The notes below the pieces were generated by a model, which was not told where the DNA came from, did not search any database, and worked only from the letters and a program-made list of their open reading frames with translations. A stretch of 57,978 bases of DNA, taken from positions 1 to 57,978 of the forward strand of contig WJJT01000021.1 of NCBI GenBank assembly GCA_014729555.1, given 5' to 3'. Origin of the DNA: Candidatus Woesearchaeota archaeon (GTDB lineage Archaea > Nanobdellota > Nanobdellia > Woesearchaeales > ARS49). Positions within the stretch are counted from its first letter, which is position 1. Every line of letters begins with the position of its first letter. Both the position numbers and the translations under genes were made by a program. Positions 32,621-57,978 of this stretch are shown here, piece after piece.

Positions 32621-33295
32621 CTATTTCTCAATCCCGTCCCAGCTTCCGTGCAGATGTTTTGGAACCATTGAAGTGTCAGCATATATTTTGAATCCTGCGT
32701 TAATCACATCTAAAGAAAACATCATGTCATCAAAGCCTTCTTCATATCTGAACTCAACCTTCTCAAGGACATCTTTGTGAATAAGCACGCAGCTAAAAGA
32801 ACAAGCTTTCAATTCAACTAATTGTTCTTTCTCCAGCTCTTGTTTTGGCAGATACCATAGCCCTGTCGGATCTACTGGATGCTCTACATATGCCATTGGC
32901 ATTAGTTCTATTTTATTGCCTACTGGCAGATTATTGTAAACTATTCCTGATACTATTTTCTTGTCATGCCTTACTAGTTTCTGTATAATATCTGGTTCTG
33001 GAATCACGTCCTGCTCTAAACTCAGGAAATAATCATAATCATTCTCCAGGGCATATTTTCTTATTTTGTTTCTGCTTTGCTTTATTCTCTCTCTTGCACT
33101 GTCATGCCACTCATTTCGAAAGACTTTAAATCCTAGTGCTTCTATCATTTTTGAATACCCGCTTTCTTTGGAATTATCAACAATGAGAACATCAAAATTA
33201 TCATAAGTTAGTTTCTTGAGTGCCTCTGCATACTCTTTCAAGCAGTATTTTTTCCCGTCCCATGTCGGACACCCTACTAATACTTTTGGTTTCAT
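32621..33295 (-). CDS. glycosyltransferase-like protein (putative)
   Basis: N-terminal beta-alpha pattern VLVGCPTWDGKKYCLKEYAEALKKLTYDNFDVLIVDNS resembles GT-A/GT2-like enzymes. No firm DxD assignment. Confidence 0.4.
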   Translation of the reverse strand: MKPKVLVGCPTWDGKKYCLKEYAEALKKLTYDNFDVLIVDNSKESGYSKMIEALGFKVFRNEWHDSARERIKQSRNKIRKYALENDYDYFLSLEQDVIPEPDIIQKLVRHDKKIVSGIVYNNLPVGNKIELMPMAYVEHPVDPTGLWYLPKQELEKEQLVELKACSFSCVLIHKDVLEKVEFRYEEGFDDMMFSLDVINAGFKIYADTSMVPKHLHGSWDGIEK

Positions 33296-33705
33296 ATGTT
33301 TAGCTTGACCTCTTCTCCTATTTGAATGTTGTGTTTTTCTGAAAATCCTGAATTTATTTCAAGCACGTATTTTGCCTCTGCTTTTGGTATATAATTTTTG
33401 CAGGGTTCTTTTTCACACGGTTCTGCAGTTAGGATATCAACTATTGTATTTTCTGAATTGATGAATACCATATCTAGAGGAATTAATGTATTTTTCATCC
33501 AGAAACCGTGTTTTCTTTCTTCGTCAAAGACAAAAAGCATTCCATCATTCTCCCCTAAATGCTCTCTGTGCATAAGTCCTCTTGCCATCTCTGCAGGTGT
33601 TTCAGGCACTTCTACAGACACTTTTGTATCACCTATTTCAACACAAGGCCTGGAAGTGCAGGCAATTAAAGCAAAGAGTAATGGTATTAAGATTGTTTTT
33701 TTCAT
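33292..33705 (-). CDS. DUF192 domain protein, lipoprotein-type signal
   Basis: LLFALIACTS lipobox. MLFVFDEERKHGFWMKNTLIPLDMVFI is the DUF192 core. Confidence 0.75.
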   Translation of the reverse strand: MKKTILIPLLFALIACTSRPCVEIGDTKVSVEVPETPAEMARGLMHREHLGENDGMLFVFDEERKHGFWMKNTLIPLDMVFINSENTIVDILTAEPCEKEPCKNYIPKAEAKYVLEINSGFSEKHNIQIGEEVKLNI

Positions 33706-34316
33706 GGCAGTTCACTTATGTTGATTATGCTCACTTTCTCATCTGCAATCCTGGGGCATGCTGTGTTTACCCAGCACTCTATGAACAGGAAGTTTTCTAG
33801 GTCAGAAGGGTTTAGTGTGTCAAATGCAAATATGTAATATTCTTTGTCTTTTTTTGCAGCTAATTCCAATGCTTTATCTATTCTGTTTTGCCCGTGCTTT
33901 ACTGAAACTAATATTCCTATCTTATTTGAGGAAAGAAATCTTGCCAGTGCTGCGTTTCTTCTTTTTTTGTATTTCTCAATATCTTCATCCTTGACAACAG
34001 ATAGTTTTTGTGTCAAGGGATTCCATTTGAACACTTTCTTGCCTGTCTCTAAAGCAACTGCTATTGGATGAAATTCTCCAGAGCCGATGAAAAGAAATGC
34101 ATCCACTTTGTCTGCTATCTGTTTTGCAGTATCAACATTGCATCCTAATACCTGCCCTCCTTTTACAGCCTCTTTTAACTGTGAGATAACTTTGTCTAAT
34201 TCATGCAGATGCTGTATTGTTGTTACCGCACCCAGCTTTGCAGGCAGTGCATTCAGAGCTGATTCTGATAGTTTTGGATCTGCTGTTGATTTTGCAGGTA
34301 TGTGCAGTATTTTCAT
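33702..34316 (-). CDS. dph2: diphthamide synthase Dph2, C-terminal two domains only (split gene, part 2)
   Basis: TTIQHLHEL, GQVLGCN, AFLFIGSGEFHPIAVAL, IGILVSVKHGQ and ECWVNTACPRIA line up with domains 2-3 of archaeal Dph2 (about 340 aa). The N-terminal domain is absent here. Confidence 0.8.
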   Translation of the reverse strand: MKILHIPAKSTADPKLSESALNALPAKLGAVTTIQHLHELDKVISQLKEAVKGGQVLGCNVDTAKQIADKVDAFLFIGSGEFHPIAVALETGKKVFKWNPLTQKLSVVKDEDIEKYKKRRNAALARFLSSNKIGILVSVKHGQNRIDKALELAAKKDKEYYIFAFDTLNPSDLENFLFIECWVNTACPRIADEKVSIINISELP

Positions 34317-53767: not shown

Positions 53768-54154
53768 CTATATGATATCTTTAATATGTGCTGTTGATAT
53801 TGGGCAGCACTTTTGGCCTATGTAGTATCTTGGGTATTTTACTTCTATGCATCCTGGTTTGAATTCACTCATTCTTGCTAATGCATACCCTTTTGGGCAT
53901 GGCTCATACCCTAGTACATCGCTGTACGGCTGCCTTCCTTTTCTTTCTATTTTTGTTGATATTACGCCTTCTGGTGTGATGCCTGCTCCATAAAACCTGT
54001 CTACTGGCGCGTTTTGTGCTTTTTCAGCATCCACATACACTTTTTCAACTGAGTGGATTATTGATCCTGTGTTTTTCATCTGGAATAATAAAAGAAGTCC
54101 GATTATTGCGATAATTGCCACAATGCCTAGCATCACTAATGAAAAAGATTTCAT
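53768..54154 (-). CDS. signal-anchored small Cys protein, paralog 4 of array
   Basis: MKSFSLVMLGIVAIIAIIGLLLLFQMKNTGS... with C-terminal CPKGY...PGC...QKCCPIS. Confidence 0.65.
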   Translation of the reverse strand: MKSFSLVMLGIVAIIAIIGLLLLFQMKNTGSIIHSVEKVYVDAEKAQNAPVDRFYGAGITPEGVISTKIERKGRQPYSDVLGYEPCPKGYALARMSEFKPGCIEVKYPRYYIGQKCCPISTAHIKDII

Positions 54155-54188
54155 TCATTTCACCAAATTAGATAAAAAAAATAAAATT

Positions 54189-54584
54189 TTACTGCGGGAT
54201 TATCTGGCAGGCAGTATCTCCAATCCAGTAGTCTATTTGTTCTGGCCTGCTGGCTTGCCTGTTTGGATAGCAGGGTGAAGTGAATACGCTTGTTGACCTT
54301 GTTATTGTTGGCTTTACCTGCATTACTGCTGAGCCCGTGTCATAATATCCTGCGTAATATACTGGCTGTTCATATGTTTCTGGCACGCCTGTTACCCAGC
54401 TTCCGTATACTTCCTGCCATCTGTCTGTCTTTGCTCCTGAGTAGGATTTAGACACTCCATATGCAGTAGAGGATATGCTGTAGGCTCCGCTCATTGCTCC
54501 TTTGAACAGCAAGATCAATCCCACTATTGCAATCACTGCAACAATTCCTAATATTACCAGTGAAAGATGCCTCTTTTGATCCAT
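54189..54584 (-). CDS. signal-anchored small Cys protein, paralog 3 of array
   Basis: MDQKRHLSLVILGIVAVIAIVGLILLFKGAMSGA... The anchor is nearly identical to paralog 4. Y/G/S-rich middle region and two C-terminal Cys. Confidence 0.65.
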   Translation of the reverse strand: MDQKRHLSLVILGIVAVIAIVGLILLFKGAMSGAYSISSTAYGVSKSYSGAKTDRWQEVYGSWVTGVPETYEQPVYYAGYYDTGSAVMQVKPTITRSTSVFTSPCYPNRQASRPEQIDYWIGDTACQIIPQ

Positions 54585-54644
54585 TTTTTTTATTCACCTC
54601 TTGATTTATTATTTATTTTTATTTGATTACATAAATGTTTGTTC

Positions 54645-55262
54645 TTAGTATGTTGCCCGTAGTCCTGATTTAAAACAGCACCACGTGTCATCTGCGCCCC
54701 ATATTAAATCTCTGTTTTGTATTGCTGATCTCACCATTACTGTTAATGTCTGTCCAGCGGCAGTTTGGATTTGCTGTCCTGATTGATAGCATTCCAGGGT
54801 TCTAAGGCTGTGTTTAAGTTGTTCTGTTCCTGCAGCATACTGCATGCCTAACTGGCCGCTTCTTACAGGCTGATTGTAAACATAACAACCGCGTTCATTT
54901 TCATTAAGCCGCTTCCAAGACCTTTTTTTGTCCTGATAAGACGTTGTTCCTGCTATTCCTAGGTTGCCTGTTGCTTGACCTTCTCGCGTATATGCTTGGC
55001 CCCCTTCAACTTGTGCTCCGGTCTCTTCAATTATATTTGCCTGTGTCTCGCCTTGCTGGACTATGCCCCCGTAAATAGCTCTTCCGCCTGAAGCTGCTTT
55101 CCAGTATTTTCCTGGATCTCCTCCTGGTGTTTCTGCTGCTTCTCTTGTTTGTTTATATATTGAAACAGCTCCTGTATTTGCATCTGTCATCATCATCACA
55201 AATCCTACCATGCCTACTACAAACACGACTGTTAAGACAATGAATGGTGTTTTTTCACTCAT
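54645..55262 (-). CDS. signal-anchored small Cys protein, paralog 2 of array (longer, G/Q/T-rich)
   Basis: MSEKTPFIVLTVVFVVGMVGFVMMMTDANTGAV... with C-terminal GCYVYN, LECYQSG and WCCFKSG. Confidence 0.65.
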   Translation of the reverse strand: MSEKTPFIVLTVVFVVGMVGFVMMMTDANTGAVSIYKQTREAAETPGGDPGKYWKAASGGRAIYGGIVQQGETQANIIEETGAQVEGGQAYTREGQATGNLGIAGTTSYQDKKRSWKRLNENERGCYVYNQPVRSGQLGMQYAAGTEQLKHSLRTLECYQSGQQIQTAAGQTLTVMVRSAIQNRDLIWGADDTWCCFKSGLRATY

Positions 55263-55273
55263 CTTTTTTCACC

Positions 55274-55663
55274 TCATATACCTACACAGCAATACTTGTC
55301 TGTGTATACATCTTCTACACTGAAATATGGATAGCATTTGTTTAAGTCATTTATTTCATCCATGCTTATGTACGTTGGAACATCTGTTAAGTCATATAGC
55401 TCTCCCTGAATTGATAACACAAAGCAGGATTTTCTTGGTTTTACTCCTGCTATTGCAGAGCCCCATGCTCCAAAGACACCTTTTTCTTTTTTTGCTGCCT
55501 CTATTGCTTCTGGTGTTGCTATAGCCCTGCCGTACATAGGAGATTTTGCAACCATCCCTGTTGTTCCAGTATTGTATAGCATAACCATTCCGACTACTGC
55601 CAGAACAGATACTATTGCTAGAAGTGTCATAGGAAAATTTTTCTCAAAGTCCATTATTTTCAC
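55274..55663 (-). CDS. signal-anchored small Cys protein, paralog 1 of array
   Basis: ...PMTLLAIVSVLAVVGMVMLYNTGTTGMVA... with C-terminal SCF..., NKCYPYF and KYCCVGI. Confidence 0.65.
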   Translation of the reverse strand: MKIMDFEKNFPMTLLAIVSVLAVVGMVMLYNTGTTGMVAKSPMYGRAIATPEAIEAAKKEKGVFGAWGSAIAGVKPRKSCFVLSIQGELYDLTDVPTYISMDEINDLNKCYPYFSVEDVYTDKYCCVGI

Positions 55664-55722: not shown

Positions 55723-56160
55723 TTAAGTAAAAAAAAACATGCCTGCAGCCACTGCTAAAAACACCACTATATTTAGTATTATCTCTTTCTTATTTTTCAT
55801 CAATGAGCCTGCCGGAAGCCCGTAAAGAAAAATAACTCCGCTTATTAATAAGAAACTGCCAGTTAGTGAAGCTAGATACATTCCCAATCCCAGGATCACA
55901 GAGATAAAATATGTTGGTATTTTCTTGGACCAGCTTAAATAAACAAAGATTATCAAGGCTCCTGTCCAGGTGTAGTGAACATTTGTTCTGTTGAAATGCA
56001 TCACTAAAAAAACAGTTAGGCAAAACAAGAATTTCTGCAGTATCAGGAAATATTTCTTTCCTGGCTTTATTTCCTCCTTTGCAATCCTGGCAAGCGCTCT
56101 TCCTGATACTAAACCAAGTGCAGCAACAACAGCAGCCAGCACATAATTTATGACTTCCAT
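55723..56160 (-). CDS. four-TM membrane protein (hypothetical)
   Basis: 145-aa ORF with four hydrophobic helices. Its start overlaps the stop of the Dph2 N-domain gene by 13 nt. Confidence 0.6.
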   Translation of the reverse strand: MEVINYVLAAVVAALGLVSGRALARIAKEEIKPGKKYFLILQKFLFCLTVFLVMHFNRTNVHYTWTGALIIFVYLSWSKKIPTYFISVILGLGMYLASLTGSFLLISGVIFLYGLPAGSLMKNKKEIILNIVVFLAVAAGMFFFT

Positions 56161-56402
56161 TCAGAATGCCCCCATTGTATCAATAAGTCAACTCCTAAAT
56201 CCTCTGCTTGTTTTGGAATGTCACAAGCACCATAACAAGAGCCAAGCCATATTATTACCTCTGCGCGTGTTTTTTCTTTCAGTTCTTTTGCAATCTTTTC
56301 AGCCTCTGGCTTCAGGCCATCAGGAAGCTGCACACAAACACGTTTAGCTTTTGTCTTTTTTATCTCTTCACAAGCCTTCTCTAATTCTAAGTCATATTCC
56401 AT
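56148..56402 (-). CDS. dph2: diphthamide synthase Dph2, N-terminal domain only (split gene, part 1)
   Basis: MEYDLELEKACEEIKKTKAKRVCVQLPDGLKPEAEKIAKELKEKTRAEVIIWLGSCYGACDIPKQAEDLGVDLLIQWGHS matches Dph2 domain 1, including the CYGACD cluster-ligand region. It ends where the 33702-34316 product begins to align. Start set at the ATG at 56402. Confidence 0.75.
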   Translation of the reverse strand: MEYDLELEKACEEIKKTKAKRVCVQLPDGLKPEAEKIAKELKEKTRAEVIIWLGSCYGACDIPKQAEDLGVDLLIQWGHSEWKS

Positions 56403-56498
56403 AGAACGAACAATATCTGATGATTTTAAAAAACTATTGATAATCCGAGCATTAGCGAGGACTAGCTGCACAAAGTGCCCTTTCTATTTTTAGAAAAC

Positions 56499-56506
56499 TA
56501 TTTAAA
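56499..56506 (+). promoter_or_regulatory. TATA box of tRNA-Asn
   Basis: TATTTAAA ends 25 nt upstream of tRNA position 1 (56531). Confidence 0.5.
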
Positions 56507-56530: not shown

Positions 56531-56618
56531 GCCCCTGTAGCTTAGTGGTAGAGCGTGCGGCTGTTAAACTCAATTTTTAGAAACCGCAAGGTCGCAGGTT
56601 CAAATCCTGCCGGGGGCG
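56531..56618 (+). tRNA. tRNA-Asn(GUU) with 16-nt intron at 37/38
   Basis: Manual fold. Acceptor GCCCCTG/CGGGGGC. D arm GCTT-AGTGGTA-GAGC. Anticodon stem TGCGG/CCGCA with loop CTGTTAA interrupted by 16 nt (about 56567-56582). T arm GCAGG-TTCAAAT-CCTGC. Discriminator G. T-run after the 3' end. Confidence 0.85.
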
Positions 56619-56640: not shown

Positions 56641-57789
56641 TTATTTCTTTTTAGGCAAAGTATATTCATTAGTGAAATAATCCTGCATTCTCTCTGTCAA
56701 GCCGCTGCTGGCTTCTGCTCTGCAGCTTGCCACTGCACTGCAGAAAGCATTTGCATCAGAAACGCCGTGTCCTTTTTTCAGTATGGCGCTTCTGTATTGT
56801 GCACGTGATCTCAGGCCGTGAAGTGTTGCAGCGCCATAGCCTTCAAAAGCAAAAAGTTTTATCAGCCTGCTTATCACATTTCTGGGAATATTTTCTACTT
56901 TTTTCATAATCGCGCCCATTTCCGGCTGGGGTTTAATCTTCCCTTGCTCGACTGCAATTTGATAATCCAGGACTATATCTTTAACAGTGTCTGAAATGAA
57001 ATGTTTTGTATAACCTAAGATCGTCTCTGCTTTTGCCTCTATTGCCTTTAGTATAAGGTTTCCTGTGTGTCCGTCAATCACTACTGCATGAGCCTTGCTT
57101 AGTTCTGCATCTCTTGGCTCTGCTCTGCTTACATTTATTGTTTCTATTCCTGCAGCTTCGCAAAGCTCCATTGTTCTTCTGACTAATTTGTTTCCTTTGT
57201 ATACTTCTGAGCCGACTGTTAATATGCCTATTTTTGGATCTGTGATTCCTTCTCTTTCATCCAGGACTATTCTTGCGATTTGGGCAAATTGATACAAGTG
57301 GTGTGCTCTGCAAACCATGTTTGCGCCTATGTCTAAGTAAAGCACTTTATCTGCTGCATCTCTTACCTTGATGAATTCTGCGAGAGGCAGCTGGTCTACG
57401 TTAGGCATTGCAAAATCATGCAGTTTTCCGGCGATGTGCTGTATTATTTTGGTTGTGTCGCCTATTGTCAATCCGCCGTCAAAATCTTGTCCAATGCCGT
57501 CTACGAGTTTGTTCAAAGAACTGCAGGATAGGTTATGCGAATCAAAATAAGTTTCTGCTGGTTCGATATGCACCGGGACTTTAACATCCAGTTCGTCTAA
57601 TTCTCTTTTAATATCATCTTCATGGCCAATAAGAACAAGTTCGCTGTTTTTTTGTTCATTAAGTGCTTTTACTGCACCTTTTACTGCTCTTTCAACAACT
57701 GGCTGTTCTCTTCGCTTTCCATCCAAGCCCACTACATACTGGTCTCCCCCCAGGGTATCAACAGCGATTATTGTTTGGTATTCACTCAT
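56641..57789 (-). CDS. plsX: PlsX-family (phosphate acyltransferase-like) protein, divergent
   Basis: IAVDTLGGD, YLDIGANMVCRAHHLYQFA, PKIGILTVGSEVYKGN, VVIDGHTGNLILKAIEA and YGAATLHGL...KKGHGVSD line up with PlsX motifs. An insertion follows GGD, and the central AGNTGA region is diverged. Confidence 0.7.
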   Translation of the reverse strand: MSEYQTIIAVDTLGGDQYVVGLDGKRREQPVVERAVKGAVKALNEQKNSELVLIGHEDDIKRELDELDVKVPVHIEPAETYFDSHNLSCSSLNKLVDGIGQDFDGGLTIGDTTKIIQHIAGKLHDFAMPNVDQLPLAEFIKVRDAADKVLYLDIGANMVCRAHHLYQFAQIARIVLDEREGITDPKIGILTVGSEVYKGNKLVRRTMELCEAAGIETINVSRAEPRDAELSKAHAVVIDGHTGNLILKAIEAKAETILGYTKHFISDTVKDIVLDYQIAVEQGKIKPQPEMGAIMKKVENIPRNVISRLIKLFAFEGYGAATLHGLRSRAQYRSAILKKGHGVSDANAFCSAVASCRAEASSGLTERMQDYFTNEYTLPKKK

Positions 57790-57838: not shown

Positions 57839-57978
57839 TGGGCCTGCGGAGATTTGAACTCCGGACCTCACGATTTGTGAATTCTTGTTCAGTCACTGGA
57901 GACAGAGTCTTCAATGGTGAATCTCCCGAAGAAGATTCGCGAACTCGAATTTATCAGTCGTGCGCTCCACCAGGCTAA
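57839..57978 (-). tRNA. tRNA-Ile(GAU) with 77-nt intron at 37/38, 5' end beyond window
   Basis: Minus strand reads ...TT-AGCCTGGTG-GAGC-G-CACGA-CTGATA[A + intron]-TCGTG-AGGTC-CGGAG-TTCAAAT-CTCCG-CAGGCCC-A. About 11 nt of the acceptor 5' strand and D stem lie past base 57978. Confidence 0.8.

Follow-up and report, generated by a model that had tools for sequence, protein, structure and literature searches.

Dph2 is a non-canonical radical S-adenosylmethionine (SAM) enzyme with a [4Fe-4S] cluster; it takes the 3-amino-3-carboxypropyl group from SAM and transfers it to the diphthamide histidine of EF-2. Here we analyze the small gene dph2N and its surroundings in a contig of 57,978 nucleotides from a Candidatus Woesearchaeota archaeon (WJJT01000021.1; the whole of this stretch is called the window), in which Dph2 is encoded by two separate genes. 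Canonical archaeal Dph2 is a homodimer with solved structures from P. horikoshii (3LZD), Ca. Methanoperedens (6BXM/6BXN) and M. smithii (6Q2D), and the window pair belongs to the same family. The [4Fe-4S] ligands of P. horikoshii Dph2 (PhDph2) are Cys59, Cys163 and Cys287 (PMC11048331), and SAM is contacted in CmnDph2 by Gly158, His180, Gln237, Val265, Arg285 and Asp289/290 (PMC10669111). Three cluster cysteines drawn from three regions of the protein, and a SAM pocket with Gly, His, Gln, Arg and an acidic residue, are shared by the canonical enzyme and the window pair. However, canonical Dph2 is one chain of about 330-345 amino acids, whereas the window encodes two chains, so that the cluster would be ligated by two polypeptides. 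The eukaryotic Dph1-Dph2 heterodimer likewise uses two genes for the same reaction and has functionally unequal subunits, but each of its subunits is a full-length paralogue with a cluster of its own, whereas the window genes encode complementary fragments of one protomer.

The closest described systems are the split Dph2 genes of DPANN archaea. For the nanoarchaeon Nst1, a split Dph2 (genes 222/440) is listed by Podar et al. (2013; PMC3655853). Split Dph2 in DPANN archaea is also described by Narrowe et al. (2018; PMC6143161), and the lineages named in the review of Dombrowski et al. (2019; PMC6349945) are Parvarchaeota, Pacearchaeota, Woesearchaeota and Altiarchaeota. The window genes are of the same class, with separate genes encoding the N-terminal part and the C-terminal part and no difference in kind. 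Therefore, the core finding of a split Dph2 is not new: the original prediction, made from the window's sequence, that the enzyme lies in two genes is confirmed here but is no discovery. Gene fission in a reduced archaeal genome, with dispersed halves, is also the pattern of other split genes of Nanoarchaeota and DPANN (reverse gyrase, AlaRS, RNA polymerase B and PolB). The passages on split Dph2 in the three papers (PMC3655853, PMC6143161 and PMC6349945) give no exact cut site, allocation of cofactor residues, trimming of the C half, adjacent-to-dispersed series or downstream membrane protein gene, and Dph2 does not appear in a survey of gene fusion and fission in Archaea (PMC11237513). Our analysis adds the cut site, the allocation of cluster ligands and SAM pocket, a trimmed C half, a series from adjacent to dispersed halves, and a conserved, unexplained operon partner. 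Dph2 is used as a single-copy marker, and completeness estimates as well as phylogenies are misled when it is encoded by two genes (Narrowe et al. 2018, PMC6143161). The split enzyme is, moreover, a natural experiment in which an iron-sulfur cluster would be held by cysteines of two polypeptides.

Division of Dph2 between two genes

The two Dph2 genes of the window are as follows.

56148-56402, minus strand: dph2N, N-terminal subunit of the split Dph2 (255 nt, 84 codons plus TAA)
33702-34316, minus strand: dph2C, 204-aa C-terminal subunit of the split Dph2 (from profile matches and alignment)

In our overall reading, 56148-56402 very probably encodes the N-terminal subunit of a two-piece Dph2 that assembles in trans, and leads a transcript shared with the overlapping membrane protein gene T. 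The dph2N product matches Pfam PF01866 (Diphthamide_syn) at profile positions 1-56 of 302 (E 2.3e-14; 54 bits, cut-off 33.2), TIGR00322 at positions 1-81 of 320 (E 8e-24; 84.6 bits, cut-off 35) and TIGR03682, the archaeal Dph2 equivalog corresponding to arCOG04112, at positions 1-64 of 308 (E 3e-19; 69.4 bits). It also matches the solved Dph2 structures 6BXM, 6Q2D and 3LZC, with 6bxm_A aligned over residues 7-84 (E 7e-15). These profile and structure-sequence matches uphold the claim that the 84-aa open reading frame (ORF) is the N-terminal part of Dph2. The product contains the motif GSCYGACD, which includes Cys60, and the residues invariant among its homologues (QLPxGLK, GxCxGxCD and QWGH) are conserved in full-length Dph2 too. 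The classical radical-SAM family PF04055, with its CX3CX2C motif, was matched by neither half in the Pfam search; the cysteines of both halves lie far apart in sequence, as in all Dph2 proteins. We place the start of dph2N at ATG 56402 because homologues begin with MEY and relatives have in-frame stops upstream. A start at GTG 56471, which would give the longest ORF (107 aa), is rejected on the same two grounds, the stops being found in close relatives. Sequence 5' of the ATG is conserved at the nucleotide level and not as a coding extension.

The remainder of Dph2 is encoded by dph2C, which matches PF01866 at positions 64-271 (136.3 bits), TIGR00322 (125.7 bits), TIGR03682 at positions 72-278 (147.5 bits) and 6bxm_A at residues 93-292. 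Neither half alone reaches the full-length TIGR03682 cut-off of 202.8, but the summed scores (69.4 + 147.5 bits) exceed it. When joined, the halves are collinear with 14 full-length Dph2 proteins in a MAFFT alignment, with a junction gap of at most 3 residues; this collinearity and the consecutive TIGR03682 positions bear out the prediction that dph2N ends where the 33702-34316 product begins to align. The cut falls in the loop after the GHS motif, between DLLIQWGHSEW-KS and MKILHIPAKS: dph2N stops 4 residues past GHS, and dph2C opens directly with the next Dph2 strand. Overall, the window holds 84 + 204 = 288 aa in two ORFs that lie 21.8 kb apart on the same strand, not a single polypeptide of ~330 aa.

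We find that the cofactor residues are divided between the two products. In the HMMER alignment, dph2N Cys60 (GACD) aligns with PhDph2 Cys59, and the GACD cysteine is invariant across 20 dph2N homologues; dph2C Cys59 (GQVLGC) aligns with Cys163 and dph2C Cys187 (NTACPR) with Cys287. The three cluster cysteines are complete only in the pair (1 + 2). Because dph2N has one ligand and dph2C the other two, a complete cluster site needs both polypeptides. The SAM-pocket residues are all on dph2C (G of VLGC, H of FHP, Q of HGQ, R of CPR and D/E in RIADE), with Leu in place of Val265 and the D/E of RIADE one residue nearer the Arg than in canonical sequences. Since ligands and SAM pocket are divided in this way, the N and C products would have to associate non-covalently for the enzyme to form, and the sequences make such an assembly into one [4Fe-4S] enzyme the most likely arrangement. 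We rejected a split intein or trans-splicing as a means of joining the halves: neither fragment has sequence beyond Dph2 homology at the junction, and there is thus no room for a split intein. The halves of N. equitans PolB are intein-joined, whereas dph2N and dph2C, with no intein, cannot be joined by protein splicing.

To place the cut within the fold, we can draw on a single-sequence AlphaFold2 (AF2) model of the concatenated N and C products. The model has a mean predicted local distance difference test (pLDDT) of 55.7 and shows three strands in dph2N and a fourth at dph2C residues 2-7. Together with the alignment, this low-confidence model suggests a cut within domain 1 and completion of the sheet in trans. 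The original prediction had equated the 84-aa product with the N-terminal Rossmann-like domain of Dph2; the product is indeed the N-terminal part of domain 1, but probably has only three of the four strands, which would make it most of the domain and not the whole.

We propose the following course of events. The cut in an ancestral dph2 would have fallen in the loop that follows beta-strand 3 of domain 1 (LIQWGHSEW / KILHIPA), and the halves would have dispersed later in the Woesearchaeota-type DPANN lineage. The 84-aa product would give one cluster cysteine (Cys60), and the 204-aa product the other two and all SAM-pocket residues. The two polypeptides would associate non-covalently, probably completing the domain-1 sheet and sharing the iron-sulfur cluster, and the N+C unit would then dimerize as in archaeal Dph2. 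The gene dph2N would be the probable first cistron of a leaderless transcript and T the second, translated from the overlapping start codon. The pairing of the two genes is inherited across most of the order.

Constraint on the halves and their dispersal

We searched 5.8 billion proteins for homologues of dph2N and obtained 1,678 matches. The best 120 of these, from which details were taken, are nearly all 83-94 aa long and 63-92% identical, and at least 579 dph2N loci occur in species-representative genomes. Homologues of dph2C are also free-standing (120 listed; 201-250 aa, 50-90% identity). Among the matches listed, the named homologues of both halves are Woesearchaeota or Nanoarchaeota archaea. 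For locus comparisons we fetched 80 species loci with flanks of up to 10 kb; in 80/80 the dph2N homologue is a free-standing ORF that ends just past GHSxW. The best dph2N matches in a 50%-identity clustered library are mostly 80-130 aa long. The motif GH[STNAV] is present in the C-terminal part of 83 of the 99 short cluster representatives, and 64 of these end 2-12 residues after it. Given that the motif is near the C-terminus in most short representatives, the same cut site is found across deeply diverged clusters. We also calculated the ratio of nonsynonymous to synonymous substitution rates (dN/dS) by the Nei-Gojobori method against close relatives. The values are 0.04-0.05 for dph2N, 0.06 for dph2C and 0.15-0.21 for T, and are approximate because synonymous sites are near saturation.

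These data decide against dph2N being a decaying remnant, or a frameshift or assembly artefact of an intact dph2. The dph2N product is short and its C-terminal partner is trimmed relative to canonical Dph2, as one would expect of decay, but ~30 genes and 21.8 kb lie between the halves, the same split architecture is found in hundreds of independent assemblies, dN/dS of dph2N is ~0.04, and its start and stop positions are conserved. We regard this explanation as effectively refuted. An untranslated remnant, which the original prediction had named as one outcome that would overturn it, is contradicted by the hundreds of free-standing ~84-aa homologues and by the low dN/dS. Therefore, dph2N is a real gene under constraint and no remnant.

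Very strong selection on dph2N, a gene long separated from its C half and joined to another operon, is also what one would see if it had a function of its own apart from diphthamide, for example as a small Cys-bearing flavodoxin-like module that works with T or with lipid enzymes, leaving the C half alone or inactive. This is very improbable. The invariant residues of dph2N are those conserved in full-length Dph2, only two of the three cluster ligands are on the C half, and constraint on dph2N and dph2C is similar. In addition, the N and C halves are found on the same contig in the window and, as matching lengths of the longest contigs given for the two halves indicate, apparently also on contigs of 705 kb and 40.6 kb.

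The arrangement of the halves differs between lineages. Roughly 30 ORFs lie between them in the window, and the C half is absent from the flanks (up to 10 kb) of dph2N in 80/80 species loci. The two Dph2 halves are under different promoters, as the original prediction held: with the partner encoded 21.8 kb away, dph2N and dph2C cannot share one. In contrast, two more distant lineages (39-45% identity) keep the halves adjacent (L095, 4001-5419; L096, 1091-2088). The L096 halves are in different frames and share the overlap ATGGTAA, and in L095 a single ORF of 97 aa, with three hydrophobic segments, stands between the halves. This ORF matches no Pfam family and is rejected as a homologue of T, whose hidden Markov model (HMM) gives no match to it at E <=1; nor was a T gene seen in the ~4 kb either side of the adjacent halves in these two lineages. 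The series fits a single fission in situ, followed by dispersal and by capture of dph2N before T in the Woesearchaeota-type lineage. That the C half is found within 10 kb of dph2N at none of the loci of the 80 species, and next to it in two more distant lineages, appears to be unreported.

Several observations weigh against our overall reading. Compared with canonical Dph2, dph2C is without ~14 aa before GQVLGC, 5 aa after ACPRIA and a C-terminal tail of 20-45 aa, and because its C half is without the first of these segments and the tail, a two-piece Dph2 could be an altered enzyme. Its catalytic activity is predicted from sequence. The placement of the cut inside domain 1 depends on the alignment and on an N+C model of low pLDDT. 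Among the window ORFs, viewed by length and N-terminal sequence only and with no profile scan, no EF-2, dph5 or dph6 was recognized. Lastly, the dph2N-T pair is more conserved than any other neighborhood of dph2N, as a functional partnership would also predict.

The membrane protein gene T and its pairing with dph2N

The gene that follows dph2N in the window is the following.

55723-56160, minus strand: T, orphan membrane protein of 145 aa, six helices predicted; 13-nt overlap of its start with the dph2N stop (ATGGAAGTCATAA)

The predicted 13-nt overlap between the dph2N stop and the start of the 55723-56160 ORF is read directly in the sequence. The four transmembrane segments once assigned to its product are not borne out, since the AF2 model (pLDDT 90.6; predicted template modeling score, pTM, 0.83) has six helices. 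For T, Pfam and NCBIfam yield sub-threshold noise only, and comparison of the model with the PDB by Foldseek gave no meaningful fold match (best E 0.41, TM below 0.3). The family has only 45 homologues, and Woesearchaeota is the sole taxon among those with a name. Two motifs are near-invariant in the homologue alignment, IAKEEIKPGKKY after helix 1 and LIFLYGLPAGSL in helix 5. By a manual positive-inside reading, there are 12 Lys/Arg residues in loops 1, 3 and 5 and 1 on the other side; because these loops are Lys/Arg-rich, both motifs are placed on the predicted cytoplasmic face.

The N-terminal ~125 residues of T, comprising five helices, are fused to a glycerophosphodiester phosphodiesterase (GDPD) domain (E ~1e-46) in two species (L034, 2595-3704; L049, 6434-7531). 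This fusion is the only functional clue for the orphan family; Pfam found no matches in the other extended forms of T (L124, L153). The commonest gene downstream of T is a convergent CarS (CDP-archaeol synthase), and genes for CDP-alcohol phosphatidyltransferase, phosphatidylserine decarboxylase and PAP2-like proteins are often near T in the same loci. In the window, the gene upstream is PlsX-like. The associations of T other than dph2N, above all the GDPD fusions and CarS neighbors, point to lipid head-group metabolism.

Using the 75 informative loci among the 80 species loci, we find T downstream of dph2N on the same strand in 68 and absent downstream in 7. It is adjacent to or overlaps dph2N in 42, usually by the identical 13-nt or a 10-nt overlap, and lies 0.3-2 kb away in 26, with an RpiB, NUDIX or EamA-like gene between. 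Genes upstream of dph2N and downstream of T are far more variable than the pair itself, and the pattern persists for a dph2N homologue of 59% identity (L093). A count from the side of T covered 75 informative T loci from metagenomes. Here dph2N is directly upstream in 31, ~3 kb or less away on the same strand in 13 and 3.5 kb away in 1, which places it within 3.5 kb in 45/75, or 45/56 without the short-flank loci that have no dph2N. It is not upstream in 11 T loci that have at least 2.5 kb of upstream sequence, nor in 19 more with shorter flanks. T without dph2N is also seen in L008, and dph2N without T in L004. The link between the two genes is strong and not obligate in either direction. The finding that T follows dph2N on the same strand, often with a 13-nt overlap, appears to be unreported.

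One explanation of this link is that the products are functional partners, with T tethering or regulating the split Dph2 at the membrane or serving as a third subunit whose conserved cytoplasmic loops stabilize the small N fragment. We consider this unlikely. The counts from both sides agree with it, as does the persistence of the pair while flanking genes on both sides change, and the same pattern at L093; however, the counts are not independent because all loci come from one order, each gene is also found without the other (T in L008 and in at least 11 loci that have >=2.5 kb upstream, dph2N in L004 and in 7 further loci), and unrelated genes stand between the two in 26 loci. The position of both invariant T motifs in Lys/Arg-rich loops, predicted to be cytoplasmic, would suit a contact with dph2N, which is never near its own C half in the 80 loci, but T is fused to GDPD, its other conserved neighbors are lipid enzymes, and in the lineages whose halves are adjacent no T gene was seen within the ~4 kb of flank fetched in either direction. 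A like conserved overlapping neighbor also accompanies dph2C: a DUF192 gene (33292-33705, minus strand) that overlaps it by 4 nt, encodes a lipoprotein-like signal (MKKTILIPLLFALIAC) and has no plausible link to diphthamide. This neighbor is also present in L089 and L177, and the pair is kept down to 53% identity of dph2C. Given that dph2C keeps an unrelated overlapping gene, conserved adjacency is weak evidence of partnership in these compact genomes, where conserved overlaps between neighbors are common.

A specific form of the partnership is that the invariant cytoplasmic motifs of T, AKEEIKPG and FLYGLPxGS, bind the 84-aa Dph2 fragment and that the first diphthamide step, or a new function of the fragment, takes place at the membrane. 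This too we think improbable. If true, a membrane-organized first step of diphthamide synthesis would be something that no Dph2 system is known to do; the view of diphthamide synthesis is unchanged unless T proves to be a real partner. Because the other associations of T lie in lipid head-group metabolism, we favor a conserved compact operon over a Dph2 complex as the reading of the dph2N-T pairing.

Three further observations concern the neighborhoods of these genes. First, both halves of the split Dph2 head small operons with unrelated envelope proteins. Second, a radical-SAM protein of ~500 aa (PF04055) recurs 1-6 kb from T (L007, 4470-5990; L008, 4514-6013; and 11 loci of L009-L088). Its gene is directly after T in L007 and L008, and L008 has a 260-aa TP_methylase, of the family that includes Dph5, 2 kb further. 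Third, the paralog array reported just downstream of T in the window is present at 53768-55663 (minus strand), but its conservation is limited to the closest relatives, and it does not belong to the dph2N-T unit. It consists of four small ORFs, 128-205 aa in length, whose products all have a hydrophobic anchor at the N-terminus and cysteines at the C-terminus; BLAST groups two of them, they belong to no Pfam family, and they are conserved only in L001, L009 and L017.

Promoter boxes and genes upstream of dph2N

The region between dph2N and the next protein-coding gene upstream includes the following features.

56424-56441, minus strand: A/T-rich box ATCAATAGTTTTTTAAAA, conserved in five relatives; 22-39 nt upstream of the ATG of dph2N
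56499-56506, plus strand: TATA-like box TATTTAAA of tRNA-Asn, 25-32 nt before the tRNA; conserved in five relatives
56531-56618, plus strand: tRNA-Asn(GUU) with a ~15-nt intron right after the anticodon (ARAGORN; Rfam 63.8 bits)

We infer that the box at 56424-56441 is an archaeal TATA element, which would drive a leaderless dph2N-T transcript. An alignment of the five relatives shows no comparable conserved box before T, whose ATG sits within the end of dph2N. Co-transcription of dph2N and T is plausible from the 13-nt overlap, its retention in many species, and a conserved TATA-like box that is present only before dph2N, 22-31 nt from the ATG.

The tRNA-Asn gene adjoins dph2N, as originally noted, but on the opposite strand and divergently, and it carries an intron, which we placed by alignment with intron-less homologues. 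The counterparts in L001, L011 and L027 are also intron-bearing, and the copies of other relatives are intron-less. Introns in tRNA genes, like the gene content, agree with an archaeal source. A comparison of synteny around tRNA-Asn, as the original prediction had suggested, found the gene directly 5' of dph2N, on either strand, in ~10 of the 57 loci scanned. Between the two TATA-like boxes is a block of ~40 nt, GCACTTTGTGCAGCTAGTCCTCGCTAATGCTCGGA (56444-56480, minus strand), that is kept in L011 and L017 and absent from L009 and L010. We reject it as a repeat, since it is single-copy in the window; Rfam gave no match within it, and it is non-coding because relatives have in-frame stops there.

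Further upstream is a PlsX-like gene (56641-57789, minus strand; PF02504 FA_synthesis, E 1e-24), which is also upstream of dph2N in 14 related loci. It encodes a bacterial-type enzyme of phospholipid synthesis on an archaeal contig. Next to the end of the window is a tRNA-Ile(GAU)-like gene (57839-57978, minus strand) with an intron after the anticodon that, at ~75 nt, is unusually long. The window end cuts this gene, truncating its 5' end; it scores 25.1 bits against the Rfam tRNA model, aligns well with an element of L001 and was missed by ARAGORN. Many related loci have a tRNA-Ile(GAU), as found by ARAGORN, at a distance of 1-2 kb upstream of dph2N; in several it immediately precedes the PlsX-like gene. 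Outside the window, three closely related Woesearchaeota contigs (L001-L003, 1-920, minus strand) encode, ~5 kb upstream of dph2N, a 510-aa protein with bacterial sigma-70 regions 1-4 (PF00140, PF04542, PF04539 and PF04545), a gene that is unexpected in an archaeon.

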